From positions 1 to 64,000 of the forward strand of contig MU271328.1 of assembly GCA_021432655.1 (NCBI GenBank): a stretch of DNA of 64,000 nucleotides. Reading direction: 5' to 3'. This document shows positions 1,736-34,251 of this stretch, one piece after another (position 1 is the first letter of the stretch; each line of letters begins with the position of its first letter). The DNA comes from Atractiella rhizophila. Taxonomy: Eukaryota. The notes beneath the pieces are model-generated. The model was not told the DNA's origin and ran no database searches. It saw only the letters and a program-made list of their open reading frames with translations. Position numbers and translations under genes: made by a program.

Positions 1736-2005
1736 TATTATGAGTCCCCCAGGATTCAATTTCGCGCCACAACTTCCTGAACTCACTTACCCAGGACCTG
1801 CGTGCTTGTTTTGGACTCACGTTTGGCTTGCTTCGGTGAGTTTTCAAATTTTGGATTTCCAGGATGTGAAACTCACTTTGCTGTGTAGAGGTATTTACTT
1901 TATCAGTCTACTGGCATTAGGTACAAATCGCCAGCTGTATCAACGAGAACTTACAAACACTGGTTGACTCAATGTGGTTTCGAGCCTTGCTCAAGCCCGA
2001 GTGAT

Positions 2006-2411
2006 TGTCAGGTTTGCCTCTTACGCAAATCGGCGCCAGTTCGCCGGATTGCATCTCCTATCACCCATTTGCGTTCCCCACGAATCGGTGCCTGTTCTCC
2101 TGTTCGCCCATTTGTGCCTGCATCACCACTTAGCCCCTTTGTGTCTATTATCCTCTTATTAACTCCACGTAATCCCACTATCACTTCCCCTTTTTAGTTC
2201 TCTTACATGTTTCATCTGCTCTCCTCTACACTCTGTGGCAGTATTATTCCACTTGTATATATAGATTGGAGAGTAGTGGAGGTGACCTTAGAGTATTCTC
2301 TTAGGTTTATCTCCACTATAGGTTAGTCTTCACGTCATATCATGCTCTTAGGTTTATCTCCACTACAGACACATCGCCTGTCAGCGACCGCACATAGGGT
2401 CAGCCCTAACA
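2006..2411 (+). repeat. Solo LTR, same family as the chromovirus LTR at 20088-20459
   Basis: TGTCAGG...CCCTAACA termini, near-perfect 5-bp TSD (GTGAT/GTAAT), and end-to-end similarity to 20088-20459. Confidence 0.85.
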
Positions 2412-3770: not shown

Positions 3771-6700
3771 TATACATGTGATAAGCACATTGGGCTCTTG
3801 TTGTTTGTCGATTCTGACTTCCCTTTCATTGCGGAGTACTTTGGTGTTTGTATCGAGAGGGGTGGACACTGGCTCGGCATCTTGCAATCAGTATTTCGTG
3901 ATGATTTGGTCGATGTAGTGGGCTTGGGAAAGTGTAATGGTTCTGTCCTTGTGATTATGTGTGATTTGAATCCCAAGGAGTGGAACCCCTTCTCCCTGAT
4001 CTGTTGCATCGAATGTTTGTTGGATGGCCCTCGAACTTCTGCTATCTCATCGTCACCGTTTCCAACAATCATAAGGTCATCTACCGAAACATCAATGATA
4101 ACCATATTTCCTTCTCTCCTCCTCACGTAAACACAGTAGTCTGCATTTGATCTCTTGAATCCGAGCTCCATTAGAGCTTTATTAAGACGAACATTCCAGA
4201 TTCGCCCTGACTGTTTCAGTCCGTAAAGTCCTTTGACAAGTTTGAAGACCTTTCTTGAGCCATCCTCGAAACCAGGAGGTTGCTTCATGTAGAGGTTAAG
4301 CTCCTCCTCTAAATCTCCATTCAGGTAAACTCCTACTACATCCATAAGATGTATCTTCCAGCCATTGGCTGCTGCAAGTGCAATGATTGCTTGCGAAGAC
4401 TCCATTCAAGTGGCTGGTGTGAATGTTTCATTGAAATCTTGCCCAGGGATCTGACTGAATCCCCGTGCTACTAGTCTTGCTTTGTAGCGCTTTAATCTTC
4501 CTTCCTCATCTCTCTTTCGACGAAAAACCCACTTAGATCCAATTGCTCTGCGATCCTTCGGTAACTTCACCAAACTTCTTTCCCAGGTTCCATACTTCTC
4601 TAACTGCTTAATTTCCTCATTCATAGCTTCTTTCCAACTCTCAAATTCGTTGGATTGTATTGCTTCCTCATAACTAGTGGGGTCATCGTTTGAGGTGATC
4701 AAAGTTGTGAAAGCAAATGCAAAGTTGGCAGCCGCTTCTGCTGGGGGTAAGTTTGATGGTTCTGGTGCAGTCAATGACGAAGTAGTTTGTTTTGTTCGAG
4801 GTTTAGGTCGTGCTTTGCCGTAGTGTAAGGTATAGTAGTCTACTTCAGGCCTTGCTCGTTTTCCTAATCCCGATGCATAGGTCTCATTTCCCGGTCTCAG
4901 GACTTCGGTTTGAGTCTCTGGTTTGGAAGTTTGGAGTGATATTGTTTCTGCAGGGTTTTCTGCTATTGGTGTGTCCTTGTCTTTGCTTTCTACATTTGAG
5001 GGAGCAGGGTCCATGTTGATTTCAACTTCTTTTGGTTCTACTTCAAGGAAGATGTAGTTTCATGACACAAGCATCTTTCCATTTTTTGGATTGTAGTACC
5101 GGGTTGCCTTTGGCGCATTTTCATATCCTACCAAGATTACTCTAACTGACTTTGGGTCTAGTTTGGACCATTTGTTTCTTTCATCAAGGACCCACATGTC
5201 TGTTCCAAACTCTTGAAGATGCTCAATTGTTGGTCTCTGGGTGGTCCATGCTTGGTGTGGTGTTTCGTCCTTTAAGGCTCGTGTGATAGAGCGATTTCTA
5301 AGGTAAGCAGCATGTTCCACTGCTTCTGCCCACAGTGTAGGACTGGCCCATGCAAGTTCAATTAGAGTACGGTTCATGCATTCCGCCACTCCGAGCTGTT
5401 GATGTGAGTGTGGTGCTATGAGTTCTAGCTTTATTCCTTTCTCTCTTTCTAGCCAGTCTTTGATTTTTCGTTTAGGTATTCTGTTCCCCTATCGACTCGA
5501 ATGCGCTTTGGGGTACGCTCGTACTTTCGTTCGCATGCGCTGGAGCGCTTGTTCTTTCATTGCTATGAAGAGGACCGTTGTGTGGTGTACAGTCATCCGT
5601 AAATGAGATATAGTATTTGGATCCACCATAGGAGGGAACACGAGAAGGTCCCCATACGTCAGAGTAAGTAAGTTCACCGGGTATTTCTGACCTCGTTGAC
5701 GCTTCGCAGGGATAGGCTTCATGTGCCGGCTTTGCTTGGATACAGGCTTCACCTTGCGAAGGTGGGCTCGTTTCATCCACCATCATGCCATCAACTAATC
5801 CCTTCTTGTAGTTCTTCCAGCATTTTCGGGTCGATATGGCCAAATGCATGGCGCCATTCATCCCACGTTCTTGCTGGTTTCTCTGCTACGGCCATCACCT
5901 TTTCACCCCCTCGTTCCATACTTTGTAGTAAGTACAGATTTCTTTTCTTAGTTCCTTCTCCTAGCAACTGATATTCTTGTTGAACAGTTGCACCTTTCCT
6001 CCCCTGAAGACGGCCTTGCCACCTGCGTTGTCAAGTCAACTGATGGAGACGAGATTATTTGGTGCTGAAGGTGTGTAGAGGGTGTCTTTGAGGGTGTTAA
6101 TTATGATTTGGTTGCCGATTTTGATTGCCACCTTATAGGTTCCTCGCATGATAGCTTCAATGGGTGTCTGTGATAGGCTATGGATCTTGAAGTTTGAGAG
6201 AGCCCGGCATGTCTCTTCTATGAACCCATCACAATCGTTACTAATGTGCGAGGTAGTTCTAGAGTCAGCTAGCCATGTGGCCTTAGGAAGTGAACCGTCA
6301 AAATGGTCTTGCGCATGGTATGCGGAGTCAGCAAGGACATAGTTGATGTTTGGAGTTTCTGATGATTGTTATGCCTTTTCCTTCTTCCCTCGTCCACTTC
6401 TTGGTTTCTGGCCTTCCCTTCCTCCTCCCTTAGCCTAGCAGTCAGCCTTCATATGCCCATTCTTATGGCAGTTGAAGCACTCGATGTCAGACCTGTCTCT
6501 GCCATCTCCCATTTTCGGTTTTGCTGTCCTTTCCCTTTAGCAAATAGCGCTGTCTCTAGCGCTCCTGACTTCTCCTTCCTCCGCCTCTCCTCTTCAATCA
6601 GTAGTGCTGATAGCTTGTGCGATGACAAGGTCGGTTTGTTCGAATACGCTCCGAAATATGCGGATGTGAAAGTGTCCCACGATTCCAGCAACGACATGAT

Positions 6701-7010
6701 AAGGAGAAACGCGAAGTCTTCGTCTTTGAATGTATCCCCCATTAAGGCAAGTTCCTCTTGAACCCTCGTAATGCGGAGATGTGCTCGACCATGCCGAATC
6801 CTTCCTCATCATACGAACGATACAACCGATGCCTTGCCGCCAGGATTCCTAAGATCCCGTTCGCCTCTTTCACTGCTTACAACTGCTTCAACATCTCTGC
6901 CGCCATCTTTGCTCCTGACAAGTGGATCAGCTCGCCATCGGTGATCGTCAGCTCAATGCGAGTCTGTGCCTTGGCATCATTTGTCCCAGCCCATTCATTT
7001 TGGGTATGGA
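3770..7010 (-). mobile_element. Degenerate Ty1/Copia internal domain (gag, protease, integrase, RT), no LTRs seen
   Basis: Fragments in Copia order on the minus strand: gag (FAFLLIMSLLESWDTF), protease (WLADSRTTSHI), integrase (YSDVWGP, AECMNRTL, LWAEAVEHAAYLRNRS), RT (IGSKWVF, YKARLVARGFSQ, LYGLKQSGRIWN, VSVDDL). Many frameshifts. Confidence 0.93.
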
Positions 7011-7019
7011 CATGCTGAC

Positions 7020-8534
7020 CCTTTATGGCATTAATTGCCATACTTATAAAGGACATTTCTTTACCGTTGGTGGATTAAACAACACTTTGAATACAAAGCA
7101 CGAAGGGAAGCTATAAGCTCACCAAAAATTCAGATGGTGCAAGAGGCACGAGTCGAAACTCCTCACCCTCGCATCTCAGATGCCCAAAGAAAGGAGTTTG
7201 TTGAAGTACTCAAAGTAGTCGCATAAGCCCTGACTTAACTAAAGAGCAATGCAACCAACTAGTACGAGTTCTTTTCCAGGAGCATTATGCCTTTGCATAT
7301 GGAAATCATCCTCTAGGCAAAGCGAAGGGAACGGAAATGCGTATTGAACTTACAGTGGAAGAGGACAAGCTGCCTCCGCCTGTACCCTACTAGCCCTGCC
7401 GCACGAAAGGATATGCAAGAAGCAGTTGAAAAACTGAAGGAACTAGGAGTAGTACGAGATTCTCAAGCGTCGGCTTTCCGAGCGCCAGTGTTTATGGTTT
7501 ATCGACAAGGTTCAGATCCTCGAATGTGTATTGACTACAGAGCACTAAAGGCTATCACAAAAAGTGATTTGTACCCCATACCAATGGTAGATGAACAAAT
7601 TTCAGCCCTTAGTGGCACAAAGTTCATAACAGTGCTTGATGCAAATAAAGGTTTCCATCAAATCCCCATACACCCTGATGATATTCATAAAACAGCATTC
7701 TGTATGCATGATGGACTATATGAATTCACAAGGGTGCCATTTGGGCTGAACAACGTGCCCGCAGGATTTCAACGGGGAATGAACATGGTTTTAAAGGTCC
7801 TCTTACGGAAGGATGGTGCAAAGTCTACATTGATGACATTATCATCTTTTCAAAAACATGGTCTGAGCATCTACAGCACCTCCAAACGTTCTCCAGCTCA
7901 TGAGGGAAGTGTGTTATACAATCTCTCTGAAAAAGTGCAAGTTTTGTTACGATTCCATTATACATCTTGGACACTTGGTTAGCGGTCTACAGATCGTAGT
8001 TGATACAAATAAAATAGCAGCCGTTGCACAATTTCTAACTCCTCTAAACATAGCAAACCCCCAAAGTTTTCTTGGACTAGCAGGTTACTACAGGAAATTT
8101 GTCAAGAACTACTCTGACATCGCATGCCCCTTAACCAAGCTGCTTTCAAAAGACATCACATGGAATTGGACAGGAGATTGTGAGAAAGCTTTTCAAGCTT
8201 TAAAGAATTCTCTCATAAGCGCTGCTATACTTACACAACCAGTCTATAACTCGCCATTCAAGCTATACACAGATGCAAGCGGAATAGGACTGGCAGGCGT
8301 CTTGCAACAAGTACAATCCTTAAATGACAATAAAGTAGAGCGAGTCATTTGCTATATATCTAGTCCACTGAAAGACTCCGAAACTAGATATGCGGCTACA
8401 CAATTAGAATGGCTAGCAGTAGTGTGGGCTCTGGAGAAGCTGCATCAATATTTGGACGGTGCGGAGTTCGAAGTCATCACGGATTGCATCGCATTTAAAA
8501 GCCTTTGAGGCGTAAAGACTCCTACGAGACAGAT
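7020..8534 (+). mobile_element. Ty3/Gypsy pol fragment (RT + RNase H), frameshifted
   Basis: RMCIDYRALK, LDANKGFHQIP, PFGLNNVPAGFQR; YIDD in an alternative frame near 7826; SFLGLAGYYRKF, LYTDASGIG, LEWLAVVWALEKL. Confidence 0.92.
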
Positions 8535-8789
8535 TGATAAATGAGCGAGTGCTGCGAAGTGTGAGATAACAGATAAGTATGCCTTACATTTAACTATACA
8601 AAGAAACTACATTACCTACAAAGTGCAAGATAACAGATAAGTATGAGTCTCGCACTTGCAGGTGAAGGGCTTGTATAGCTAAGATCCCTGTGGCAAAAGA
8701 GAAGTTCCCACAGTTCCAGAACACGCTCGACGAAAGTGGAAACACGCATGTGCGCAAGCGGTGAAAGGAGGAGGCGTATGATCTTGTCA
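8535..8789 (-). repeat. LTR (family 2) truncating the Gypsy pol fragment
   Basis: TGATA...TGTCA termini and full-length similarity to the TSD-flanked solo LTR at 36669-36919. Flanks differ here (CAGAT/CCTTG), so there is no TSD. Confidence 0.75.
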
Positions 8790-9329
8790 CCTTGGACATC
8801 TATGTCCCCAAATCACCAACCAGCTCCAAGTCAATGAGATTCGGGACTAACCTGAGAAGCAATCCTTTGGGTTGCAGAGTGCCTTGGGGTCATAGAGGGT
8901 TCATGGCTTGGCCTTGAAAGTGATAGAGAAACATGGTGAGGTAAAGGAGGGGAATCCTCAGTGGAAATTGAATGGTCTATGGGGCTTGTCCCAAGATTGA
9001 ACCATGGAGAATGTCTCACTGGGATTGGTGTTGCCATAGCGGGTGAATGCGTGAAAGGCGAGATGAATATCGATGAATGTTGATCATGATGGGCGCCAAT
9101 AAACATGCTTTATATGAGTGAGATGATTCTGGTTCTGAAAGTCGGCCAACAATTGCTATGCACCGCGGAGCATCGGATGTTGGAAGTTGGCAGGTTCAAA
9201 GATTCTAAACTTAGAAGGAAGCACCGGTTGTCAAATGCTGAGAAGTTGAGAACCCTGAACGTTGTCAGACCTGAACATGTCACAAGTTAGATCAGCCACT
9301 CGAAAAGGTGGTAAGAAACCTTGAATTGC

Positions 9330-9508
9330 ACATTACATTAGAGATTATAATGATTATAACCTAAATGTTGACCATCCCGTTATCATAATGTGCTTACAGA
9401 TGTAATGCATTATGAGCTGTGGAAATTACATTGAAATTTAATGTAAGTTGTATTACATTACTTACACATAATTTTTTGTAATGTAATGGTGTAATGGTGG
9501 GAGGCCTG
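9330..9508. repeat. Probable hAT-type terminus with ATTAC/GTAAT subterminal repeats
   Basis: Dense cluster of ATTAC/TGTAATG motifs ending in GTAATGGTGGGAGGCCTG (reverse complement CAGGCCTCCCACCATTAC). No partner end found. Confidence 0.5.
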
Positions 9509-9829
9509 GTTGGTATACCGGTCACAGAGAGTGCCATATGACCAAGCGGTTATGCGTGTTGTCGAACAGGATGCAAATTGTGATGGGAATGCCTATTGGG
9601 CTGTGCAGATTATCTTTGAGTAATGTTGCCCGATTATTTCAATGGAAACGATGCTCATCCTTCACCAACTGAGGCAAAGAATTTCGCTCTGAAGGACTAG
9701 TTTGAGATACCATAGTAACCCTGAGCCCGTTAGCATCAAATCAAATCAAGCAAAAAAAGCATAGGTGTGTGGACTCTGGCTTATATATTCTTCACTCATA
9801 TCATTTTGGTGCAGCAAGCTACACTCTCA

Positions 9830-12800
9830 TGCCACGTGCAATTCAGAGAAATCAAACAAGAAATCGAGAGCGTCGATCCAAACGGCATCAATGTCTGCAG
9901 CAGGAGGCATCACTACACCAAGGTCGACCTGTAAGAGAGAGGCAACGCCCTGCACGTTTTAATCCTACTCCACCTACTCCACCTCAACATGAGACAAGAT
10001 CAACTAGGGCTCCACGTCAGTGTCTGCAGCGCCGTCGAAGCTCTTCACTATCTATATCGTCATGACCAGCTCGACGATATCGGAGACAGCGTTCACCCTC
10101 CCCTGAGGAGTACAGTGAAGAAGAAGCCCAATGATACCCATCCTCTCCTGATCCTGATGGTGTGGACAGTAATGAGGATAGGGTATTAATCCCGTTGTTG
10201 TGAGGCAAAATAAGGCAACATCACTATCCTGCATTCAACTACTCACCTGATATGGATCTTGGGGCACACCACCTCTCTACTTGGGGATTACTTTGTACAT
10301 ATTCCAAAGCCTTTCATTGGATGGAAGAGAAGATCGTTAACAGCCCACAACGAAATCCAAAGTTTGCATTGTGCTGTCTCCACGGCAAGGTGCTGCTACC
10401 TGTTCCTCCGCCTCTGCCTGAAGAGCTACGAAAGCTTTTTACACATCACAATACAACAGGTAAGTATTTCTATTCAATTTATTGTGTATACATATCTGAG
10501 AGGAACAATCATTATAGAGTCAAAGGCATTTTGAGAGCATATCAGGGTATTCAATAATGCTTCTGCCTTTACATCCTTAGGGTCCGCCAGGTATCAATTC
10601 CTGGACATGGTCCCTACTCCTTCAAAATTCAGGGAGAGCTGTGCCACCTTATTGGCACTCTTTTACCACAACAAGAAGGGTGTGAAACATTTGCACAGGT
10701 CTACATTACAGATTCAGCTGTACAGACTGAACGAAGAGTTGGCAACACTTCAATATCACTGAATTGTAGGACGCTTGAAGACCTTCAGGCTATGCTCTTC
10801 CGTGTCAACCCATATCTCAGGATCTACAAATTTGCAAAAGAAAGAATGGAACAGGATCCCACTGCAACACTACATCTTCGCACAGTCGCCCCACGAGATA
10901 GGGACCCAAGATGCTACAACATTCCTGTAGCCAGTGAAGTTGCTGTAGTGATGGTAGGAGACAGTAACAGAGAAGAATATGGAGTAGCCAGAGATATTGT
11001 CATCCAGCTCAGGGCAACCACGGCCGGTAGCAACTTACAGCGTGTCAATGAGCTCAACTCAAATTATCTTCCACTTCGTTTTCCTCTTCCGTTTCCATAT
11101 GGGGACCAAGGATGGCATCCGCAGATTCCGTATCGAGACCTGCCTGCAGATCTTCCTCCTCGCGAGCGAGAGCACTTCAATGATGACGGCATGCAAGTTG
11201 GTAATTCTGGGGTTCGACAATGTGTCAGCCAAATGGAGTTCTATTCTTACATGTTGCATCAACGAAATGATATATTCTCACTCCCTCTCTACGGTGGTCG
11301 GCTACTGCAAGAATTGGTAGTCGATGCTTAAGCTCAAATTGAGGCGAATCGACTCCGCTATCTGCGGTTCAATCAGTCTATTCTTCGAGCCGAGGTGTAT
11401 CAAGGTCTTACGGATGCCCTTGCAGAAGGCTATTCTTTAGAAGATATCGGGAGGCGGACTATATTACCTTCAAGTTTCACTGGCGGCCCATGTTCAATGA
11501 ATCAGCTGTTCCAGGATGCAATGAGTATAGTTGGTGCCAAAGGACCCCCAAATATCTTTACAACCTTCACTTGCAACCCATACTGGGAGAGATCACGGAA
11601 GCCCTCCTACCAGGACAAAAACCAGAGGAGCGACCAGATTTGGTTTCAAGGGTTTTCGACTAAAGGCTCTGAAGTACATCAAGGATTTAGTGGTACGACA
11701 GATCTTTGGAAGGGTTTATCGGATATGTCTGGGTCATTGAATTTCAGAAGAGAGGTCTACCACATTCCCACATCCTGTTGATTCTTCATCCTGAAGATCT
11801 TATCAGGGATGAGGCAGCCATTGATCAAGTAATTCAAGCAGAGCTGCCTGATCTGGACAAGGACCCTGTATTATTTGAAATAGTCACCAAGCATATGCTA
11901 CATGGCCCATGTGGTGAACATAATCCAGATGCACCTTGCATGGTCAATGGGAAGTGTGGCAAAGGGTATCCAAGCCTTTTGTTGAGGAAACGAGAATCAA
12001 CGATAATGGCTACCCTACCTATCGGCGGCGTAACGACGGCCGGGTTTTTCGCAAGATGATACGGGCCAAGAGTTTATATATGATAATCGATGGGTAGTGC
12101 CTTTTAATGCTTGGGTCCTGAGGAAGTTTCTGGCTCATATCAACACTGAGATCTGTATCTCAATTCGTTCAGTCAAGTATATATTCAAATACGTATACAA
12201 AGGGCCGGATAGAGCACAATTAGTCATAGAATCAGATTTCAGTGGAGCAAGAGAGCCAGTGGATGAGATTAAAGAGTATTTAGATGCACGATATGTGGGT
12301 GCTTCAGAAGGTTTGTTCAGTCCATTCCTCAAAGGTTAAGGTTAAGTATGATTATAGCATGCTGGCGGATTTTCCACTTCAAGCTTCATGATCACTCTCC
12401 AACTGTGATTCGACTCAGCATTCATCTTCCAAATCAACAGATGGTCATTTTTAATGCAGAAGATGATTAACCTGAAGATATACTTTCACGAAGAAATGTG
12501 GGAAAAACAATGCTTAGCGAATTTTTCCAATTCTGCCATGATTCTCCCCAGGTCTCCGATCCTCTCAAGCCCCTCGACATTTGGTCTGGCAGAGTAATTC
12601 AAAGCGCTGGAAGATACGTGAGAAAGGCGATGCTATTGGTCGGATATTTTACATTGCGCCGTCACAAGGGGAGCTCTTTTATCTTCGACTACTTCTTCAC
12701 AAGATCCTAAGTCCTAAATCTTTTGAGGACATTCGTACATTTGACGGTTAAAGTTTACGAAACATTCAAAGCAGCCTGTGTGGCATCAGGTCTACTGGAA

Positions 12801-14703
12801 AGTGACGAAGAATGGGATTTGTGTCTGGAAGATGCAAACGCAATCAAACGAGGATCAGCAATTCGTTCTCTTTTTGTCTACATTTTGGTCTTTGGAGTTG
12901 CAAGCGAACCATTACAACTGTTTCGAAGACACTATGACAAGCTCAATGACGATTGTGCACATCTTCTGCAAACAGTTTATGGAATCGCTGCACCTTCTGA
13001 AGACCAGATCCGAGACTTATGCCTTATTGAGCTAGAGGACCTGCTACATGGTCTAGGCAAGACACTAGAGGAGTATAGGTTGCCGTTTACCTGCTCACAG
13101 GTTTGCACGATGGGGTGGAGAGACAAGAATAATTGGAGAAGAGCTGGCGTACAACATTATGGAGTTAGAGCAACGTCTTGATAGGGATCTTCCTCTTATG
13201 AATGAGGATCAACGACACACATACGATACAATCATCGAAGCCTGGCAGAATGGCACCGGAGGACTCTTCTTTCTTGATGGGCCTGGAGGAACTGGAAAGA
13301 CTTTTGTTCAGAATCTTATACTGGCAAGAGTAAGGTCATCCAAGAAGATTGTACTAGCATTAGCCTCTTCTGGGAATTGCTGCTATTCTGCTTGAAGGTG
13401 GTCGTACTGCTCATACGCGATTCAAGATTCCCCTCAATGCAGATGCACAATCAGTTTGTGGTATTTCCGCTCAAAGTGATCATGGAAGGCTATATGTCAA
13501 GGCAGAAATTATCCTGTGGGATGAAGCCATTATGAGTGATCGCCTCTCCGTCAGCTGTGTGGATCAGCTGGGACAGGACCTTAAAAAGGATTCAAGACCA
13601 TTTGGAGGAACACTTATGGTTTTCTGTGGTATGATACTTCCCTTTAAGTAGTTCTTTATTAACATACTGTTTACAGGAGATGGCAGACAGTGTCTTCCGG
13701 TAGTGCCAAATGGAAGCCGAGCTCAGATTGTGGATGCCTGCATCATTAATTCTTACTTCTGATTCTTACTTCTGGCCGAATGTTCAAGTCCTGCCTTTGA
13801 AAACCAATATGCGCCTTCTTCACGGCCAACAGGAAATGACACCAGCCGAATTTCAGCTTGCGACCCAGATTTGCCCAGTGGCTCCTTGATGTTGGAAATG
13901 GTCTCACTGATAATCCATCAGACAATGGATGTGGAGCCTTAACGATACCAGATGGGTCTATTATTCGATCCCATGAAGGACTAGATGGTCTGTTGCGCTT
14001 AATTTACGGACAACTAGGTTCTCTGCCAAATATCCCTGCTCTGAGCTTCCTTCAAGAATACTTCCGGGTTCGTATGATTCTAGCAGCAAAGAATGTGGAT
14101 GTGGATGGCATCAACGATCGCTTGATTCAGTGGCTCGAATCCACAGGAGATCGGGTATATTATAGTGCAGATCAAATTATAGGTGACGAGGGAGATCTCA
14201 GAAATCGCTTCTCTGTCGAGTACCTGAATACCCTGGAGATCTCTGGATTCCCTTCACATCGTTTACACCTCAAGATCGGTGCACCCATAATTCTTCTGCG
14301 AAATCTCAATCCATCTGCTGGCCTGTGCAATGGCACACACCTCATAGTCACTCAGCTTCTCCGGCGAGCCATCGAAGCAACCATCATTACAGGTGCACAC
14401 AGTGGCGAATCAGTTCTCATTCCTCGAATCGGCATTGACAGTGTAGTATCAAACCAGCTTCCTTTTCAATTCCGGCGCTTTCAATTCCCTGTGTGCTTAG
14501 CATTTGCCTTAACTCTGAATAAAGCGGAAGGACAATCTGTTGGACATGTGGGTTTGTACTTAGAGTCTTCTCCTTTCTCTCATGGGCAGCTTTATGTTGG
14601 TCTTTCATGGGTTTCAAATGCGAACAATTTACGAGTATTGGTCAAAACAAAGCAAGGAGAGGAAAACAAGCAAACAGATAATGTAGTTTACAAAGAAGTG
14701 TTA
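9830..14703 (+). mobile_element. Helitron Rep/PIF1-helicase pseudogene (Helitron 1)
   Basis: CCLHGKVLLP; Rep motifs FTTFTCNP, VIEFQKRGLPHSHIL, KYIFKYVYKG; helicase motifs DGPGGTGKT, LCNGT, QFPVCLAFALTLNKAEGQS, FSHGQLYVGLS and the terminal NVVYKEVL. Contains introns, stops and frameshifts. Confidence 0.95.
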
Positions 14704-15002
14704 CGGAGAAGAGGGGACTGCCAGCGGTATTTGTGTTCCTTCCACTCCGACAGGATCATGTTGTTGGAAAGGTTCTGATTCAAGTGCATATTTGAATGTT
14801 TGAACGGACCCTCCAGTCGCTTGGGTATTTTTGATATCTTCGGTTAAGAGGTCCCGGAAGTCCTTAGTGGAGACGGAGTAGTGAGTTCGTAGGTAAGATG
14901 GTAGAGGATGATGTTAGAGATGTGCTGTAAGAGGAAGATGACATATTGCAATGACAGTGGCAGCTCGGTGGATCTCTCTGACTTTAGAGCCACCTTGGTC
15001 AC

Positions 15003-15108
15003 TGTTGGAAAGAAGAGTCTCAAGACGGCCATGGACTGATTTTAAGACCTAACACGTCTTTAATCCAGCTGTAAGTGAAGGGGAAAGAGCTATCGCAAAC
15101 CTCCACAA
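15003..15108. repeat. 106-bp LTR-like insert flanked by a 5-bp direct repeat
   Basis: Begins TGTTGGA, ends TCCACAA (near-inverted termini), with GTCAC on both sides (14998-15002, 15109-15113). Confidence 0.5.
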
Positions 15109-15352
15109 GTCACTTCCACTACTCTCCGATCTATATACAAGCATGTATAGAGGAGAGCAGATGAAACATGTAAGAGAACTAAAAGGGGAAAGTGACAGTG
15201 GGATTATGTGGGGTTAATAAGAGGAGAATGGACACAATTAGGCTAAGTGGTGATGTAGGCACAAATGGGCAAACAGGCGACTGGAGACGCAGAGTCATGT
15301 AGAATGCAAATGGGCGAACAGGGGCCGATTTGCATAAGATACAAACCAGACA
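15109..15352 (-). repeat. Partial inverted LTR of the chromovirus family
   Basis: Reverse complement aligns to 20088-20332; 15109-15255 appears identical to 20186-20332. Confidence 0.88.
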
Positions 15353-18300
15353 CCGCTTTGCTGCCGACCACTGCTTTGCAACCTCGTGAAGCCAATACCC
15401 TGATGATATGGAGGTGGACGCAACAAAGTTCAGACCCCCTCATTGTCAAAGATGTCAAAAAATCTGACACAAAGAGAAGGAATGCAAGATGTCCGTGAGC
15501 AAAGAGCAGAGAATATTTTGACACTTGTCTTGTACAACAAGAACGAGGATCTACACACATTGCCGACCAGTCGCTGAAAACGAGCTTGACAGATCTGGAT
15601 GAGGATTTTTGAGACGGCAATGTGTGAAGGAGTGTCCCCATCGCCGACTCACAATTCATTTTCGTCAACTAAAATCACTTCCAACAAAGTGTCGCTTTGC
15701 GCAGATTTCCCTTCTCCTGAACATGACCCCCATTTCCAAAGTTGCATTTTCCCTCTTGGAGACAAAGATGTGCAGATGTTGCCAAAATTTATGACAAAGC
15801 TGATGGGCCACGGGAGCACTTGCGCCTCCTCCTTCCATCACGTTTGGTGTGTATTAAGGCTTTCTTTCATTTTTGCTCGCGCTTTCTTATTATTCAGCCT
15901 TCTTTGCTACAAGAAGAATTGCCCTGCAAGTGCGAGACCCACTGCTTGTTTCGGTCTCGCACCTTGCAGTCCAATACGTCGCCACACACTCTTAATCTCA
16001 TCACCCCCTCATGTTCAACAACCGTATCCCTTGTCAGCTCAAAACGAAACTCAGAACTGCGTTTCATCATCCACATTCCCATCATTGACATTGCCACATC
16101 GGCACTTGTTGACAGCAGGGGAACCACTTCCTTTATTTCCCAAAACATTTCTGCATAAAACCTACCCATCACTCAACTCCCTTCCTCAGTGCCTGTTTAC
16201 AATATCGACAGATTCTCAATGAGGGAGGTTCCATCTATTCTGTCGCTTATTTACCCATTTCTACAGTGCTCATCACGAAGTTTGGCAATTTGTGGTGGCA
16301 GAGTTGGGGACGGTTGAGATGATTCTGGGTCAAGATTGGTTAAGATACCACAACCCAAAGATTAACTGGGTGTTAGGGAAAGTTGAGTTCTCTTGCTGCA
16401 CCACCAGTTGCAACGTGGTTGATGTGTCTACTACACGCAAACAATTTCCATCATTGTCTGCTTCAATACGAGTTGCCATGATGAAATCGCAGAAACTAGC
16501 AAAAGACGCAGCGGCGATGGGACTAAAAAATGTTGTCGAAATACCAGCACAAATCACTGACTTTGCAGACATTTTTGACAACGAAAAATTCAAAACTTCA
16601 CTTCCTCTCCGGTGACCTTGGGACCATGCCATCAGCCTCAAACCAGAAGCTCGACCACATACTGGTCCTGTCTACCCTTGAAGAGAGATGAATGAGCAGT
16701 GCTTGACCAATTCATCGATGTGGAACTGAGCACCGGTCGTATACGTCCCAGCACAGGAGCTCACGGCACTTCCATTTTTTTTATGCACAAAGAGGACTCA
16801 CCTGAACTTCATCCCTTTTTGACTATCACAAGTTGAATGAAGCCACAGCCAAAGACAAAACATCACTCCCCATCCAAGCTGACCTCTTGTCCATGGTCTT
16901 TGCTGAGAAATTCCCCAGCAAGATTGACCTGAGGAAAGGTTTCAACAATTTGCACATCAAAGATTGAGCAAACATAATCACACAAATTGTGGACCTTTCT
17001 GACTGTTGTTAACGTATTTTGGACTCTGCAACTCACCAGCGACTTCTCAGGCATTCCTGAACTCTATTTTCGCCCAGTGATCGCTGCTGTGTTTATCTTC
17101 ATATACATTGCCGATATCCCGATTGTGACAGAGACTGAAGAGGAACACTGGGAACGTATTCAACAAGTTTGTCAAATTTCACGCAAAAAGGACGTTATGC
17201 AAATTTGCCGAAATGTGTTTGGTGTCAAGATAAGGTGGAATATCTAGGTTTGATCATTTCCAGCAGAGGGATCAAACCAGATCCAGTACAAGTCACAGAA
17301 GTGATGGATTGGCCAGAACCGAAAAACATGAAGGAAGTCCAAATGTTCCTCGGTTTCACTAATTTCTATCGCCGTTTTGCAACAGATTCGGTCACATCGC
17401 ACGACCCTTATATGAACTGATAAAAATGGAGGTTTCCTGGGTCTGGGGGTAGATCAGCAACGTTCGTTCGCCACTTTGAAACAGCTCATGACTTCGACGC
17501 CCGTTTTGGCACATCCCAAACAAATAGGACGATTTTTGCTTGAAGTTGACGTGTCAAATTTCGCGACAGGCGCTGTTTTGTCGCAAATGAAGTCAGATGA
17601 CAAGTTTCACCGTCTCGGTTTCATGTCAAAATCGCTCAATGCTGCCCAGAGAAACTATGACACATATGACAAAGAAATGCTCGTGATTATGCGTGGGCTG
17701 CAAGAATGGAGACATCTTCTTCAGGGTACCGATGAGCCATTTCTGATCTTCACCAATCACAAAAATCTTGAGTTTTTCAGAATGCCACAAAAGTTGAATC
17801 GGCGACAAGCGGGCTGGATCACTGAACTTGCATCTTTCAACTTCGCTCTTTTACACCGTCCTGGACGAAACTCCGCAAAACCAGATGCGCTCAGTCGGCG
17901 ACCGGATCACAAACCGGTGACTTGCGACAACTTCGATGTAGTATTACTCCCAGAACGTTTTTTCAACACGGATCGTATCACCATTAACACGACTGGGAGC
18001 GCGGTTGCGCTCACAAGACAAATGTCGGAGTTGAGCATACTGGAGCACGTGAAAAAGATGCCTGAACGGGAAGAACAGGTGCTCAAAGCCTTGAGAGAGA
18101 TCCTGGATGAACCAGTCTACTCCATTCACCGACGGGAATGGCAAGAAGTCGACGGTGCTGTTTATTTTCGCGGAAAACTGTACATTCCCCGATTGATTTT
18201 GTAAGACCTCCACGATTTGCAAATCACCAGTTATCCAGGTGTAAAATCGACGACAGCTCTCGTAAAAAGGTACTACTCGTGGCCAAGTTTGGCGCATTAC

Positions 18301-19549
18301 GTCCGCCGCTATGTCAGTGCCTGTCACACTTGTCACAGAACAAAAAACTTTCCTTCCCCGCCTGTCGGGTTTTTTGGAACCAAATGATATTCCCACACGT
18401 CGTTGGCAAATCGTCAGCATGGACTTGGTCGGACCACTCCCAGAATCTAGAGGGTTTGACATGATTTTTGTCATAGTCGACAGACTCTCAAAACGTACCC
18501 ATCTCATACCTACCCATTCGATGATGGATGCGGAAGGCCTTGCAAGACTTTTTCGCGATCACTTATGGAAGTTACATGGACTTTTCGATGTCGCAATTTT
18601 CGATCACGGAAAAGAGTTTGTGTCCAAATTCACATCGGCACTTTTTCGCCTTTTAGGCATCAAAGGTTCACCATCGACAGCCTACCACCCACAAAGCGAT
18701 GGCCAGACTGAACATATGAACCAGGAAGTTGAACAATATTTGCGCATTTTCTGCAACCACCTTCATGATAATTGGGTGGAAGGACTTCCCAACGCAGAAT
18801 TTGTGCTCAACAATCATGTCAGTCTGGCGACAGGCGTAACTCCATTTTCACTCGATTGCGGTCAACATCCCTGCATGGCTTTTGAACCCATCTCCGATGA
18901 GGACGGCCCGCAGCGGCGCAATTCGTCGAAAAGATGCAATCGCCGACCGGGAAGCACAAGCGGCACTCGAACAAGCAGCTGATCTTATGGCAAAACATTA
19001 TGACAAAACGTGCACCAGCGCCCGAATATCACGTCGGCGATTTCGTCTGGTTGAGCATGAAAAACATCAAATCGACGAGACCTGTCAAAAAGTTGGACAA
19101 ATGGCATAGCCCATTTCGCGTTTTACAAGTGTTGGGTCCCCTCAACCTTAAACTCGAGTTGCAATCCTCATGGAAGATACATCCAGTGTTCCATGTAGGT
19201 CTAATACGAAAAGTCAACGAAGACGACATTCTTGGCAGAGTCCAGTTGCCCAAACCATCTCCGGAATTGGCAAATGGAATTGAAGAATGGGAAGTAGAAA
19301 AAATTGTTGATGGAAATTGGTTCAGTACCCGAAATAGAGTTTTCAAATATTGTGTTCGATACAAAGGGTATTCACCATCTGAAGACGAGTGGATCAGCAT
19401 CCAAGATCTAGAAAATTTGCAGGATGCTATAAAAGACTATCACACTGCACATCCTCTTGCAGTCTGTCCCGATTCCATACCAAACTCCGCCAAAAATCGC
19501 CCAAATGCGCTTTTTCATAACCTTCGACGAAAACGCGCTGAAGGGTCTT

Positions 19550-19678
19550 CCTCACTTTAAGGGGTCCAACACCCCTATATGCCTTGCCGGGTGAAATCCT
19601 AGTCTTTGATACTTAGGTCAAGGCAAGGCGCCGACTTGCTCCTCAACGGGCAGGTCGGCGACTTGGTCGTTGGTGAGT
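19550..19678 (+). ncRNA. Putative structured cis-RNA element, copy 1 (retrotransposon 3' UTR)
   Basis: Helices AGGGGT/ACCCCT, GCCTTGCC/GGCAAGGC and GCCGACTTGCTC/GGGCAGGTCGGC (loop CTCAAC), all with compensatory changes in copy 2. Confidence 0.65.
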
Positions 19679-19734
19679 CCATTCATCGCCTGTCAGAGAC
19701 AAATGCTCATTGCGTTCTCGTGAGGTCCCCTCCC

Positions 19735-19867
19735 CCTCACTTTAAGAGGACCTACTCCTCTGCACGCCTCGCTGGGTGAATCCCTAGTCACATTGTTGAA
19801 CATAGGTCTAGGCGAGGCGCTGGTCTGTTCCTCAACGGACAGATTGGCGACCGGTTTGTTGGTGAGT
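19735..19867 (+). ncRNA. Putative structured cis-RNA element, copy 2
   Basis: Helices AGAGGA/TCCTCT, GCCTCGCT/GGCGAGGC and GCTGGTCTGTTC/GGACAGATTGGC (loop CTCAAC). Confidence 0.65.
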
Positions 19868-20087
19868 TGTCGAACCGTTTTCACAGGATGGACACTGATT
19901 ACACAAAAACAACACCTGGTCAACTTCGAAAAAATTCCTCAAATTGCGAAGTACATAATGTCTCTTTACTCCGACGATTTCATCTCCTTTCAAGCGGCGC
20001 CTTGCACTTTGAGCATTTTGGCAAATAGGCAAACCTCACGAAGCAGAAGTTTCTGCCTGTAGCAAGCACCACAGAAACTGGGGGTGT

Positions 20088-20459
20088 TGTTCAGGTTTAC
20101 ATCTTACACAAGTCGGCGCCCGTTCGCCAGTTTGCATTCTACACAACTCTGCGTCTCCTGTCGCCCGTTCGCCCATTTGCGCCTGCATCACCACTTAGCC
20201 TAATTGTGTCCATTCTCCTCTTATTAACCCCACATAATCCCACTGTCACTTTCCCCTTTTAGTTCTCTTACATGTTTCATCTGCTCTCCTCTATACATGC
20301 TTGTATATAGATCGGAGAGTAGTGGAAGTGACCTTAGAGTATTCTCTTAGGTTCATCTCCACTACACATTAGTCTTCTCATGTCATATCATGCTCTTAGG
20401 TTTATCTCCACTACAGACGCATTGCCCATCGGCGACCGTACATAGTGTCAGCCCTAACA
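20088..20459 (+). repeat. 3' LTR of the chromovirus
   Basis: TGTTCAGG...CCCTAACA termini, preceded by AGAAACTGGGGGTGT, and similar to the solo LTR at 2006-2411. Confidence 0.9.
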
Positions 20460-23265
20460 CATGTGTCCTTGGTACAGTAACTTCATCTGTTTTCGAACAT
20501 CGAGTTGTACATTTCTGTACTTTTCGTAAATCGGCAAACCTCACCCTGGCTGGGGCCTGTTCACCTATCTGGACTCCCATCAACGTTTGTGCAAGTTGAC
20601 ACCTGATCGCCCCGTCACTGTTGCTTCCCCTTTTGGTTCTGTTACGGATTTCATATATGTATACACATAATTTTTTGCAAAGCAGCTTTTTTCCTAAATA
20701 TCAAGCAGCATGAAGTCTGGCCTGAGGCTAGTCATGGACCTGAAATTGGGATTTGAGATTATGTTCTGGACATTTAGTCTATCCTTAGGAGATGAGGACC
20801 TGAAACAATTTTATCTTCTTAGATTCAAACAAACGCTTATCTGGAGATGGGGTGTTCTCGAAAGGGACTTCGGGTCGTGAGCTACTGGAATCCCGATATC
20901 AGGGTAATAGATGTTAGTAGCACTGCCACAATTACGCTGTTTTCGGCAATATCCAAATGCACTCTGATTGATTTAGTTTAACAAAGTACAACAGCTTTCT
21001 TGATGACCTCAGGAGCCGACTTCAATTCATTTGAGAGCAGACAAGAGCAAACAAATCAGAGTCGCTTCAATCCTTGTTGCCTTGGGTAAAATGATACTTA
21101 GCATGCCTATAAAAGGCGTTCAGTGCCATTTTCTTCTTTTCAGAGGAGAAAACATCAGACGCTATACTTGAAGATGTCAAAGAAAGCAGCCCGAATTACT
21201 GTTCGTACTAGAGCACAAACCTGGAGAACGTCAGAGCCATCTGATCGACAAGGTGTGCCTTCATATATTTTCAAGTTGTTTGTTTGATGGGATTTGTAGC
21301 TCCTGTGGATCAGTCTACTGAAGGAGAAGAGCAGCAAAATCCACCAGAGCCGGTCTCTATCGTCCCCTCGATAAGAACTCACAGCCAAGCCCGTGGTATG
21401 TAGTTCTAGATAATTATGTCGACTTGCTAATCCAGCATACAGAGGCATCTATGAGTTCTCGAGCTAGTCAGACGAGCCAAGTATCATCCCACCCTGCCAT
21501 CAAAAGAGCAAGAACGAACCCAGTGTCCAACACGTATCCTCCTGAGCACCCTTCAAGCTCTTGCACTCACCGATCTCAAATTCAGTCTCAGTTATTGTCG
21601 GGCTTCTCATGCTCGCAGACCGAACATCATCCGCTCTGAGCCTGTCCGAGGGAGGTTGGATAACATCCCTTCTAAGTCGATTTCTGGATTATAAAAGACT
21701 GCATTCACTTTCAACCATGGTGAGCATCTTAGATTTAATTAGCAGGAAGTCTTATAGGTTTATAGAGGTTATTGATACCGATGCTTGGTTAGAGTATTTA
21801 GAACAAGAAGAAGCGGATAGATTGATTGATACTGAGCCTCCTACCAGACGCGGTATGCACATTGCCCAAACGTCCTGTGGATGTTGACAGAAGAGTTTTT
21901 ATATGACAGACCTGTCTGTAGGCAGCCGATCTGCTTATTCAGTGATGAGTACCTCCACAAACTCGTCGCTGAGATGGTCTTCTAGAAAGAATGGAGGGAA
22001 TGCACCTCAACGAGACGGCCAGTACACTTAACAAATGATGGTCAGTTTCTGCAACTTATTCGTTATTAGTATCACACGAAGGCACCCAAGAGGTTAGCTC
22101 GTGTACATATTACCCTGTTCCAAGATTTTATGTACCGCTCTAACGGTAATTTCAGCAAGTGATAAAGGCAAACACGTTGAAAGGCTGAAGGAGGGTACGC
22201 AGTTTCAAGTCCTTTGTATTTCTCTGCAGACTACTGGACAGACATAAAGCCCATTTCACCACATGGCGAAGCAGATGGATCAATTTCCAGGTCTGCCCAT
22301 AGTTCAAGTGCTATCATTCAAGGTTGGACTTATTTGGTTTGCTGAAATCCTTGCTGATACATTTTTTCCTTTTTGTTTTTGTCCAGAAATGCAAGCATTG
22401 ACACATGACATTCCAGCAGAAGGTACCCCTGGTTTCGAATTGGTGGACCTTCACTCACATTGGGCTCAGTATCATATATTTCAATGGATTCTGGATTCCT
22501 GCCCCTTCGTTCACCTCTGCCACTGGTTCTAGCAATATTTTGTTTGCGCTGGGTTTGTTTCTTCAAGTTTGATTATCAGCCTTATCCATACTATCCTCCC
22601 AATCAGTTCTGCTGTCACAAATTTGTCTCTCTATTTAATCTCACCCACACCACTGACACCTAATTGAACGAGCAATGATTCGTCAGTGTAAGACATTCAA
22701 TGTGGACTACATGAAGGTTCCTCTACAATGCATTGAAAACTGAATGTTTGGATCTCAACTTAAGACGCACTTAGGTGCTGCCAGAAAAGACAGCAGGAGC
22801 AGACTAACATATGTAGTTCATGACAGAAGGAAAATATTGTCAAATGAGGGTTGACGTGACCCAGCACTTTCTAGCTCAGTGTGGGAAAGAAGGACTGCCT
22901 GGTCGAGAAGGTTTGCAATGCTTGTCGGCATTGCCTGTTAGCTGTTGCATGAACGGGTCATTGTGCTTGTAAGCTACTCATATGACCGTAGCAAAGCTGA
23001 ACGATTTTGAACTGTGCATGTGGTGAGGATACATCTGAATTCGCCTCAGCTATCACCATCTTAAAAAAGGCCATGCTGTCGAGACCCATATGACCCCAGT
23101 TTAACATTAATCATGGCATCCTTTCTTTATAATGATATCATTGAATGTCATACGTAACGATAGAACAAGTAAAGGAGCGTGAAACGAAGGAAAATCAGGC
23201 AATCGAAGGAGAGAAATAACTTTATCCTATTCATAACTCCCCTGTATCCTCCTCGCCAACGTCAC

Positions 23266-28022: not shown

Positions 28023-28086
28023 TAGTATTGGACCCTGGTTCCTTCCTCAATGTTGTCGGAACAATGACTCGCTGCGGGGTCCTCCC

Positions 28087-28387
28087 CTCCTTGAACAAGA
28101 ATGAGGGGAGCTGGCCATATATCCAGCACTGGAATAGGCTGGACGGGTTGCGATGTGCCAGCGGAGAGATCGTGGGTCAAATTGGGAAGCTGGAGACTAG
28201 GATCAACAGGAGGGTCTGTACAAGGAGGAAAATCTTAGTTGACATGTTACGGAGTGGTAATATCAGGAGGGGCGGAGGTGTCATGGTGAACAGCGCCATG
28301 TTGAGGAGGAGAGTAAGTGCGGATTGGCAGGAAGAGGAGGAGGAGGAGGGAAATCGTGATCGTTTCGTGCAGGCTGAGCGGCTTGAT
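28087..28387 (+). repeat. ~300-bp dispersed direct repeat of 30262-30568
   Basis: Long shared blocks, e.g. GGAGCTGGCCATATATCCAGCACTGGAATAGGCTGGAC and GAAATCGTGATCGTTTCGTGCAGGCTGAGCGGCTTGAT. Confidence 0.9.
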
Positions 28388-29970: not shown

Positions 29971-31349
29971 TTATTGTATGCCTAATATCCCATAAGACAT
30001 CGCTAGCCAAAAGGCTAGGCTTACCTGATACTGCAGCATTTTCTTCCAATGCTCCGCTTTCCAACCATTGTCCTTTGCCATCTTTTTGGCTTCTTCAATC
30101 TGCAACGGCATATCCATCATGTCCAACAGAGGCCGTAGCTTCTCCACATCCTCATGCAGCTTTGTAATTTCCTCCGGAGGCAGGGAGGCTTCAGTGTCTT
30201 TAACTTTCTTCTTGGCTCTTCCTCTCTTTTTCTTGCTAGTGCTGACTTCATTCACCTCCTTTCCTCGAACAAGAACGAGTGGAGCTGGCCATATATCCAG
30301 CACTGGAATAGGCTGGACAGGTTGCGATGTACCAGCAGAGTGATTGTGGGTCAAATTGGGAAGCTGGAGACTAGGAGACTAGGATCAACAGGAGGGGCTG
30401 AACAAGGAGGAAAATCTTGGTTGACATGTTGCGGAGTGGTGATGTCACAAGGGGGGGAGGTGCCATGGTGAACAGCGCCAAGTTGAGGAGGAGAGAAGTG
30501 GGGATTGGCAGGAGGAGGAGGAGGAGGAGGGAAATCGTGATCGTTTCGTGCAGGCTGAGCGGCTTGATTGGCAGGCCAGAAGCCATGCTGAGCAGGAGCG
30601 AGAGTGGTGTGGTCCGCACTGTGGTCGTGTGAAGGAGATAGATCGTAATTACCGGAAGTGGATGGTATTTCACTTTGGAGACCCTTCTCCTCGATTGTCT
30701 TGTTCGGAGTGGTAGGTGTTCCTTCATCTAGATTCTTTGCTTGCAACGCCTTTGAATATTCTCCTCGTACCATGCTGTTCCTGAGATCTTCCGCCAAGCG
30801 CACATCCTTCCCCTGAATCGGCAAGCCTCATGAGATTAGCAAACAGCCTTACATTCAGGGCATTGCTGCCACTTCCTGCCAGCCAGCTTCAACCACACTC
30901 TCTGCTAACCTTCTGAGGCAGCTAAAGTCCAAGAGGAGAGGCATCACCTCTATGGAATCAGGGTGTGCCTGCTTCCATCTCTTGCACAAGGGTTGTGCGA
31001 CCTTTGCACCTCTTAGCAAGGCCTGCAACAGTTCTGCAATCGCCTTTCGAGAACCCACATTCTCCCACCTCTTCAAGCGGAACAGCATCTCTTGTCTAAG
31101 GCTGTTATGACCAAGCGTATCCCCCCGAGGATTGTTCTGCAGGTCTGAGGTGTAGCAATCTTCATCTGCATCGGTTGGAAGGTGGATGTCGGGTTCTGCA
31201 GACAGTACAGCTGTGAGAAGACGCTTTGTAGCTAATTCGGCAACACTTCTGCTGGTCTGGCGATTGACATGGTCGAGTGGTAGTACACCATCTTCAACGA
31301 ATGCGGTAAGTATATTGAGGTTGATGACAATATCGCTGTTTGTGACCAT
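29971..31349 (-). pseudogene. Hypothetical, probably TE-borne multi-exon ORF, disrupted
   Basis: Three adjacent co-oriented ORFs (164, 157, 127 aa). An 8-bp duplication at 30366-30381 shifts the frame between the last two. Confidence 0.45.
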
Positions 31350-32829: not shown

Positions 32830-33035
32830 TGTTGTAAATCGACGGGCTGAGGAGCGGAGCTAAGTACGACTTGGTTACGTTTGGCTGAGCTCTTGCAAAC
32901 GCATGAGCACCAGGAAATGGAATTCTATGTGTTTATATAGCTTACAGCAGTGGCAACTAGAAAATAGTAGAACATTCCAGAAAACTAAAGAACTTTGCCA
33001 CTGAGTGGCACGAAACTAGACTGCAAAATGCAACA
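32830..33035 (-). repeat. 3' LTR of the gag-only element
   Basis: Direct repeat of 34261-34466, 205/206 identical by eye. Confidence 0.95.
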
Positions 33036-33361
33036 CTTCCGCCCAGGCTTGTGGAGTGCCAGGAGGTAATCAATAGAAAGTAAAGTTAATCGATAAGGTC
33101 ATTTAAAAGGTAAACAAGGGTCAATTCAATTTTCAACAAGGGGATCTCAAACTTTAATAGTTCATCAAAACTTCCGCCGATTTCTTGCTTCTGCCAGCTT
33201 CAAGGCACATCAATACGAGGTCATAGCTGTCCCATGATGCTTCACCAGCGATGAAAGATCTTCTTCCTACGCCTGAAGATGATACACGGCCTTCATTCGC
33301 CAAATTTCACCAGATCTTGAGACCATTCAACTATTACTCCCCTCAATCTTCTTTTCTTCTT

Positions 33362-34192: not shown

Positions 34193-34251
34193 GGCTGGCG
34201 CGTGGGTCGTACAGATCCGCTCTTCTGGACTGGTGACGGTGGTCTAACCGG

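Follow-up and report, generated by a model that had tools for sequence, protein, structure and literature searches.

A duplicated RNA module with a predicted four-way junction fold in the 3′ untranslated region of a chromovirus from Atractiella rhizophila

In a few vertebrate retroviruses, much is known of the cis-acting RNA elements with which unspliced retroelement RNA passes nuclear and decay checkpoints. Here we describe a candidate structured RNA module that occurs twice in the 3′ untranslated region (UTR) of a long terminal repeat (LTR) retrotransposon of the chromovirus type in Atractiella rhizophila, within a stretch of 64,000 nucleotides (GenBank assembly GCA_021432655.1, contig MU271328.1, positions 1 to 64,000 of the forward strand), which is referred to as the window and to which all coordinates refer.

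In the sections of PMC9143442 drawn on here, Rous sarcoma virus (RSV) is described as having two direct repeat (DR) copies of ~115 nt, with the DR acting in the export of unspliced RNA; the constitutive transport element (CTE) of Mason-Pfizer monkey virus (MPMV) as a structured 3′ element with an internal duplication, which binds NXF1 and recruits a host export factor; and the RSV stability element (RSE) as lying immediately 3′ of the gag stop and blocking UPF1. A structured stability element, the element for nuclear expression (ENE), is reported in the 3′ region of plant and fungal LTR retrotransposon RNA (PMC12501189). The kind of element discussed here, i.e. a cis-acting RNA of a retroelement 3′ UTR, is already known. 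Multi-helix transport elements are present near the 3′ end of mouse LTR retrotransposon RNA, i.e. the musD transport element and the intracisternal A-particle RNA transport element; these are mammalian elements of a different lineage.

With respect to extent and position, the locus resembles the DRs of RSV and avian leukosis virus (ALV), in that both are structured direct repeats of ~115-135 nt in the 3′ part of the RNA upstream of the 3′ LTR, the two ~131-nt copies here lying between the pol stop (19560) and a polypurine tract (PPT)-like run and LTR (starting at 20073 and 20085, respectively). Like the MPMV CTE, it is a structured 3′ UTR element between the last open reading frame (ORF) and the LTR of a simple retroelement, although here there are two separate predicted junction modules, ~55 nt apart. 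The likeness to the DRs is one of extent and position; the present host is a fungal-type retrotransposon, and a function in cis on unspliced RNA, such as the DRs have, would be assigned to the module by analogy.

Extent, predicted fold and pairing of the two copies

Copy 1 spans 19550-19680 and copy 2 spans 19735-19868, both on the plus strand; the repeat search places their starts 185 nt apart, and a non-homologous spacer of ~55 nt separates them. Local alignment of the copies gives a score of 100, which none of 500 shuffles equals (mean 15, maximum 25), with 31 of 129 aligned columns unlike and a single 4-nt indel, located in the apical loop of the P2 arm described below. By contrast, the flanks are dissimilar, at shuffle level, both 3′ of each copy (29 of 500 shuffles reach their alignment score) and 5′ (169 of 500). 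Homology is therefore bounded by the outer ends of a CUCACU/GGUGAG helix, and the repeat is a module with sharp ends. The first 12 nt and the last 10 nt are invariant between the copies, with copy 2 keeping the same 12-nt start including UUUAAG, and the G+C content of the domain is 54-55%.

An earlier note on this DNA had proposed a tandem of two ~130-nt imperfect repeats, the first beginning at the pol stop. The two direct copies and the position of the stop (TAA, 19558-19560, inside copy 1) were borne out, and the stems and conserved motifs quoted in the note were all found in the sequence; however, the unrelated spacer means that the arrangement is not strictly tandem. The copies are absent from the list produced by Tandem Repeats Finder. 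A 16-nt motif, GGGTGAANNCCTAGTC, sought with up to two mismatches, occurs in the window in the two copies only (0.28 expected), and R1, a covariance model built from the two copies, likewise recovers only these in the window, with copy 1 (157 bits) being a training sequence.

Each copy, when folded alone, is predicted to form the same four-way junction, comprising a closing helix and three hairpins, and RNAalifold applied to the pair returns the same helices. The closing helix has 6 bp (CUCACU/GGUGAG), and P1 is a 6-bp hairpin with a 5-nt loop. The P2 arm has 8 bp, an internal region with GGGUGAA, a 4-bp inner helix (P2b, CCUA/UAGG) and a variable apical loop; it alone has internal loops, in which purine-rich GGGUGAAAU lies opposite GUCAA/GUCUA, without U runs. 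P3, which directly adjoins P2, is a 12-bp hairpin with the invariant loop CUCAAC, and is joined to the 3′ strand of the closing helix by a 12-nt linker. The helices, all supported by both the single-copy folds and RNAalifold, are as follows.

19551-56/19672-77 and 19560-65/19571-76, plus strand: copy 1, closing helix and P1
19581-88/19622-29 and 19598-601/19614-17, plus strand: copy 1, P2 and inner P2b
19630-41/19648-59, plus strand: copy 1, P3, with loop CUCAAC at 19642-47
19736-41/19861-66 and 19745-50/19756-61, plus strand: copy 2, closing helix and P1
19766-73/19811-18 and 19783-86/19803-06, plus strand: copy 2, P2 and inner P2b
19819-30/19837-48, plus strand: copy 2, P3, with loop CUCAAC at 19831-36

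The minimum free energy (MFE) is -58.8 kcal/mol for copy 1 (z -4.34) and -49.3 kcal/mol for copy 2 (z -2.32). Averaged over the Boltzmann ensemble, pairs form with a probability of 0.85-0.99 in the four main helices of both copies (closing helix, P1, P2 and P3) and of 0.53/0.82 in the inner P2b helix. The CTCAC/GTGAG closure that the earlier note had thought possible is thus predicted in both copies, GUGAG being paired at a probability of 0.91-0.97. When the whole UTR is folded, copy 2 retains all its hairpins and copy 1 retains P3; long-range MFE predictions were given little weight.

A contact between the P2 and P3 loops is possible in this model, with UUGA (19606-09) facing UCAA (19643-46) over 4 bp in copy 1 and GUUGA (19795-99) facing UCAAC (19832-36) over 5 bp in copy 2; a family variant, 19610 T>G, would lengthen the copy 1 match to 5 bp. 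The complementarity that had been noticed earlier is thus present in both copies, but it lies weakly above chance, given that a match of at least 4 bp arises in ~13% of shuffled loops per copy and in both copies in 1.75% of shuffles.

The differences between the copies preserve pairing throughout, as the earlier note had claimed. All 36 pairs are standard in both copies; 10 of them differ, five by two-sided and five by one-sided changes, and all five one-sided changes yield G-U or Watson-Crick pairs. The 72 paired columns hold 15 of the 31 differences, and no pair is broken; when 15 changes were placed at random in the paired columns (200,000 trials, with the transition/transversion split kept), zero broken pairs resulted in 2.5e-5 of trials, the mean being 6.9 broken. 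Shifting the 3′ partners by 1-3 columns reduces pairing from 100% to 29-44% and two-sided changes from five to 0-2. The statement in the note that most P3 pairs had changed was too strong, since only 6 of the 12 differ. Although folding energy by itself does not tell the strands apart, a minus-strand reading leaves only 33 of 36 and 30 of 36 standard pairs in the two copies, so the sense RNA is the favoured form, in agreement with the earlier reading of the G-U pairs. The unpaired motifs are invariant between the copies. On the basis of the pairing model, we consider it likely that the module is a selected, structured RNA of the sense strand.

The fold matches no catalogued RNA family. A cmscan search of Rfam 15 (E<=10), whose families include the hammerhead, HDV-like, hairpin, twister, twister-sister, pistol and hatchet ribozymes as well as ENE, tRNA, 5S and small nuclear RNAs, gave no match on the domains over 18500-21000, and a scan of 19540-19880 gave only two minus-strand rows, whose 14.5 and 12.2 bits fall far short of the respective gathering scores (84 and 50); mir-1677 (E 5.6) and sR38 (E 1.6), again on the minus strand, were the top rows on the domain. 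These results agree with the earlier note, in which no hammerhead, hepatitis delta virus or hairpin ribozyme had been recognised. The literature searched contained no account of a fungal chromovirus with a structured element in its 3′ UTR.

Some other identities were considered and rejected. A tRNA-like cloverleaf does not fit arms of 6/6/8+/12 bp, nor a linker of 12 nt leading into the closing strand on the 3′ side, and ARAGORN found no tRNA or transfer-messenger RNA genes in 1500-21000. An ENE, which is sometimes double, holds the poly(A) tail in a clamp formed by a U-rich internal loop flanked by stems; the internal loops here (GGGUGAAAU/GUCAA) are purine-rich, with no U run on both sides, and are therefore not those of an ENE, nor was there an Rfam ENE match. 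With regard to coding, all three plus-strand frames close inside copy 1, and a 112-aa ORF over copy 2 (19724-20062) has no Pfam family and no protein relative at E<=10.

Host element and other copies of the family

The host is a decayed element, and the features around the module are as follows.

16093..19560, plus strand: decayed chromovirus pol with protease and reverse transcriptase (RT) remnants, RNase H, integrase, SH3 and chromodomain, carrying stops and frameshifts
19681..19734, plus strand: spacer, unlike the sequence after copy 2
19869..20072, plus strand: remaining 3′ UTR, without repeat or known family
20073..20084, plus strand: PPT-like run AGAAACTGGGGG, directly before the 3′ LTR
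20085..20459, plus strand: 3′ LTR, 375 nt, TG...CA, 90-92% identical to 2002-2411
2002..2411, plus strand: LTR of the same family, 18 kb upstream, direct-repeat match
3734-6805, minus strand: copia element (gag, SH3, RVT_2), between the LTRs
7317-8508, plus strand: RT/RNase H fragment of another gypsy family, without BLASTP likeness to the RNase H at 17416-18204
10558-14778, plus strand: Helitron (Helitron_like_N, PIF1, Pif1_2B), between the LTRs

Pfam assigns RT_RNaseH to 17416-18204, rve to 18266-18982, and SH3_Tf2-1 and Chromo to 18901-19560, i.e. immediately upstream of the module, and full-length chromovirus relatives map to 16093-19461 by tblastn; the identification of the host as a chromovirus in the earlier note therefore holds. 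Among named species, Lyophyllum shimeji and Moniliophthora perniciosa (Agaricales) provide the closest protein relatives (45-55% identity), and many metagenome proteins are also related; the fungus that carries the element is probably basidiomycete-like and soil-associated. A protein search with the chromodomain ORF gave, among longer proteins, one uninformative match. In copy 1 the pol stop falls within the junction, after the closing helix and before P1, and the 3′ UTR is 524 nt long.

The five bases outside the two LTRs differ (CCGAG and CATGT) and unrelated transposons lie between them, so that the LTRs may not derive from one insertion. The 3′ LTR contains a 26-nt direct repeat (92%; 20341-20366 with 20390-20415, plus strand), and a minus-strand hairpin at 20317-20367 has a sub-threshold mir-iab-4 row (23.6 bits compared with a gathering score of 73), which is most likely due to chance. 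Two short segments of the UTR resemble the 5′ end of the element and are collinear with it: 19684-19700, after copy 1, matches the U5 end of the upstream LTR (2372-2388) at 16 of 17 bases (score 29, maximum 27 in 1000 shuffles), and 19885-19910, after copy 2, matches the leader (2430-2457) at 13 exact bases and then more loosely (score 27, maximum 23 in 1000 shuffles). Aberrant strand transfer could have left these matches as a relic, or they could represent binding sites common to both ends. The sequence GGTGAGGTGAGG, at 2467-2478 in the 5′ leader, is complementary, twice over, to the CCUCAC at the opening of each domain.

Ten sequencing runs from nine studies share part of the stretch, two of them at least half its words; the runs with a small share comprise one of a second organism as well as soil, rhizosphere and unspecified metagenomes, and none of the ten is listed as an RNA run. 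Contigs from four runs (X1, X3, X4 and X5), which collapse variants, were aligned at a likeness of at least 80%, and a variant was counted as common at a frequency of 10% or more. The 279 contigs from run X1 have word depths in the thousands, which implies a high-copy family. The contigs of X3, which carries the second organism label, are 90-95% alike, whereas those of X4 and X5 (rhizosphere and soil metagenomes) are mostly 95-99% alike and span both copies. The two-copy layout is retained in contigs of three other runs. Near 19719, the spacer of most family copies (X1, X4 and X5) is longer by ~39 nt, and the majority state in the family also includes a 1-base insertion after 19874. One record of a diverged subfamily shows ~86% likeness over both copies.

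Of the five variant positions in stems, pairing is preserved or improved at four, whereas at one a pair that closes a loop is lost. The variants 19639 C>T and 19650 G>A, which convert a C-G pair of P3 to U-A, occur at equal depth in the same two X1 contigs and also in X3; 19653 G>A converts U.G to U-A, and 19821 T>C converts U.G to C-G. The variants at unpaired sites are at 19610, 19762, 19765 and 19836. The coding stretch 19300-19549 is denser in variants, with 20 sites in 250 nt.

Pattern scans of viral contigs gave 57, 0 and 1 loci, none of which R1 matches, and a pattern scan of metagenomes gave nine loci, with no R1 match among the nine and unrelated sequence in the three inspected; a strict pattern gave no loci on prokaryote-genome contigs, and a scan of viral contigs with a single protein gave no relative. 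Protein-guided scans identified 22 distant chromovirus loci (12 from prokaryote metagenome-assembled genome (MAG) bins and 10 from IMG/VR), which are 29-51% identical in the RNase H region. The contigs of loci L068 and L070-L078, from prokaryote MAGs with labels such as Pyrinomonadaceae, Nitrososphaerales and Acidobacteria, code for chromovirus polyproteins of the fungal type, complete or partial and including chromodomains, and are probably eukaryotic contamination of these bins. The layout of pol stop and LTR was taken from the six MAG-bin contigs with the pol end inside, the IMG/VR loci being left out, and both landmarks could be placed in three: the LTR starts 22 nt past the pol stop in L068, overlaps the pol stop in L071, and starts ~940 nt past the stop, with another ORF between, in L076.

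Candidate functions of the module

The reading that we favour, at a probability of roughly 0.38, is that the module helps the full-length RNA to be exported, to accumulate in the cytoplasm or to remain stable. It is proposed by analogy, given that both the position, from the last ORF to the PPT and LTR, and the duplication match retroviral accumulation elements. The module would act in cis on the full-length genomic RNA/mRNA, through a bound protein, and would most likely help an unspliced, intronless transcript of 5-6 kb to leave the nucleus, to accumulate in the cytoplasm or to escape decay. The UUGA/UCAA loop contact may serve to compact the fold, and the two copies may provide redundancy, since copy 1 has to be unwound by terminating ribosomes. 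In basidiomycetes, mRNA accumulation is reported to require introns, as in Armillaria (PMC4935854), Ganoderma (PMC8379801) and Cryptococcus (PMC3744415), so an intronless retroelement would gain from a substitute element. A more specific version of the proposal, which we regard as a long shot, is that of a structured intron substitute that lets the long intronless RNA accumulate and leave the nucleus, perhaps with the CUCACU strand switching its pairing and exposing the invariant GGUGAGU to the U1 small nuclear ribonucleoprotein (snRNP) without splicing.

Several results weigh against a selected element with a role in export or accumulation. The covariation case consists of two paralogous copies plus a few family variants, and a column-shuffle control, which is weak with two rows, has 19 of 500 shuffles reaching the observed values. 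The linked P3 variant equals the copy 2 state, and could thus be a conversion between copies and no independent event. The change 19750 A>T is the majority state in the family (6752 of 8003 depth) and turns the last P1 pair of copy 2 into U.U; hence, of the compensation in P1 that the earlier note had described, the pairing of the stems in both copies stands, but the 19750/19756 position is U.U in most family copies. Common-variant sites number 4 in the 131 nt of copy 1 and 5 in the 134 nt of copy 2, compared with 5 in the 217 nt of the remaining UTR. The MPMV CTE forms a single extended hairpin, in which two internal loops mirror each other, and the RSV/ALV DR is a CTE-like hairpin; the predicted fold of the present module is unlike these, being instead a four-way junction. 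With respect to relatives, R1 matches none of the 22 distant chromovirus loci, and two of the three in which the landmarks could be placed, with their LTRs within ~22 nt of the stop, appear from their sequences to manage without the module. Given the closeness of these LTRs to the stop and the absence of the motif from the 22 loci, the long structured UTR is a lineage-specific addition and no general chromovirus trait.

The main rival to a role in export or accumulation is a packaging or dimerisation signal, in which GGGUGAA and the hairpin loops would bind Gag/nucleocapsid and UUGA/UCAA would pair between copies or between RNAs; we consider this unlikely. It would account for unpaired motifs that are invariant while the stems vary, and for the complementary loops of both copies, including the lengthening of the copy 1 match by the 19610 variant, although the frequency of 4-bp matches in shuffled loops reduces the force of the latter. 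According to PMC4974528, Ty3 depended on UTRs or POL sequences for the localisation and packaging of its RNA, but the packaging signals of studied LTR elements that it describes are mainly 5′. The reference list of PMC9143442 includes a work on a locus for packaging within the direct repeat of RSV (115 nt). A rough calculation of a duplex between leader and 3′ UTR gave -85.7 kcal/mol, no better than shuffles (mean -86.1 kcal/mol; 29 of 60 as good), and the complement of the P3 loop region has 58 matches compared with 52 expected.

It is less probable still that the module has no present function, and that a hairpin-rich segment was duplicated and drifted, with pairing kept by chance or by DNA-level template switching in inverted repeats. 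The window copy belongs to a decayed element, the density of variants in the domain is not below that of the rest of the UTR, and homologues outside the family were not found in the scans made, all of which speak for this account. However, the probability of ~2.5e-5 for zero broken pairs argues against chance; the five one-sided changes leave every affected pair wobble or Watson-Crick, and do so on the sense strand alone, which template switching, because it copies exact complements, does not predict. The sharp end of homology at the closing helix and the maintenance of the two-copy layout in other runs also argue against it.

A termination-linked role, which we judge improbable, would have copy 1, at the pol stop, shield an mRNA with a 524-nt 3′ UTR from nonsense-mediated decay, or modulate termination or readthrough. 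The location of the stop codon in the copy 1 junction is consistent with such a role, and there is a precedent in the RSE, just 3′ of the gag stop and blocking UPF1 in the relevant section of PMC9143442. As with the RSE, the module adjoins a stop codon that is followed by a long 3′ UTR, but this is true of copy 1 only. Copy 2 keeps the 12-nt start with UUUAAG at 185 nt from any termination site, and whereas the RSE is CU-rich and acts via PTBP1, the domain here is helical and G+C-rich, and recurs away from the stop. Readthrough, an option raised in the earlier note, was rejected as unlikely because the frame past the TAA ends after 13 codons and gives no product. Known readthrough stimulators typically start roughly 8 nt downstream of the stop, whereas P1 begins at the last base of the stop codon.

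We consider it very improbable that the module is a splice-signal mimic or part of a real intron. In this case the GGUGAGU at the end of a copy would resemble a 5′ splice site and the CUCAC...AAG at the start a branch and 3′ site, such that the spacer would be a 73-nt intron (19674-19746) or U1 snRNP would be recruited without splicing. The 12-nt and 10-nt end motifs are invariant beyond the needs of a 6-bp helix, an alternative UCACUU/GGGUGA pairing could free GUGAGU, and introns are reported to boost mRNA accumulation in basidiomycetes. Although GUGAGU is present, the 3′ end of the putative intron is AAG and not YAG, and lies only 7 nt after the putative branch A of CUCAC; there is no usable 3′ site after copy 2, and the predicted fold keeps GUGAG paired with high probability.

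Least probable is an RNA-processing element, i.e. a self-cleaving ribozyme, an exonuclease-resistant structure yielding a 3′ UTR fragment, or a small-RNA precursor, since, although the module is a compact multi-helix junction with invariant unpaired nucleotides, and the exonuclease-resistant RNAs of flaviviruses typically occur as duplicated, structured modules of the 3′ UTR, there is no Rfam match (the mir-1677 and sR38 rows being far below the gathering scores), the ribozyme option of the earlier note had the absence of a match as its only support, internal loops in P2 only leave the two-loop docking layout of the hairpin ribozyme missing, and the 12 bp of P3 are short for a Dicer substrate.

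The surrounding window and implications

The window is a nest of transposons without a clear host gene. Direct repeats of 206 nt at 32830-33035 and 34261-34466, 100% identical and 1431 nt apart, enclose a copia-type gag ORF (33362-34243, minus strand; Retrotran_gag_2 and DUF4219), and the region 32830-34466 looks like a very young or truncated LTR element. A ~300-nt repeat at 28081-28387 and 30255-30568 (~2.18 kb apart, 91-97% identity) has a nearby ORF with a weak zf-RVT match. The regions 49765-50394 and 59577-61833 hold a second Helitron fragment, 71-73% like 11706-12039, and a tnp2/CACTA-type transposase ORF on the minus strand (Transposase_21 and DUF4218). In 44001-46000 the G+C content dips to 0.356, compared with ~0.45 elsewhere, and at 45313-46242 several frames of both strands contain ORFs of 198-264 aa, suggestive of repeats or sequence of low complexity.

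If the module is not confirmed, the locus would remain a tidy case of a duplicated hairpin-rich UTR segment. If it is confirmed, it would add a new RNA family and would provide a handle on how a high-copy retrotransposon is expressed in intron-dependent fungi, as well as a possible compact tool for intronless transgenes in mushroom-forming fungi.

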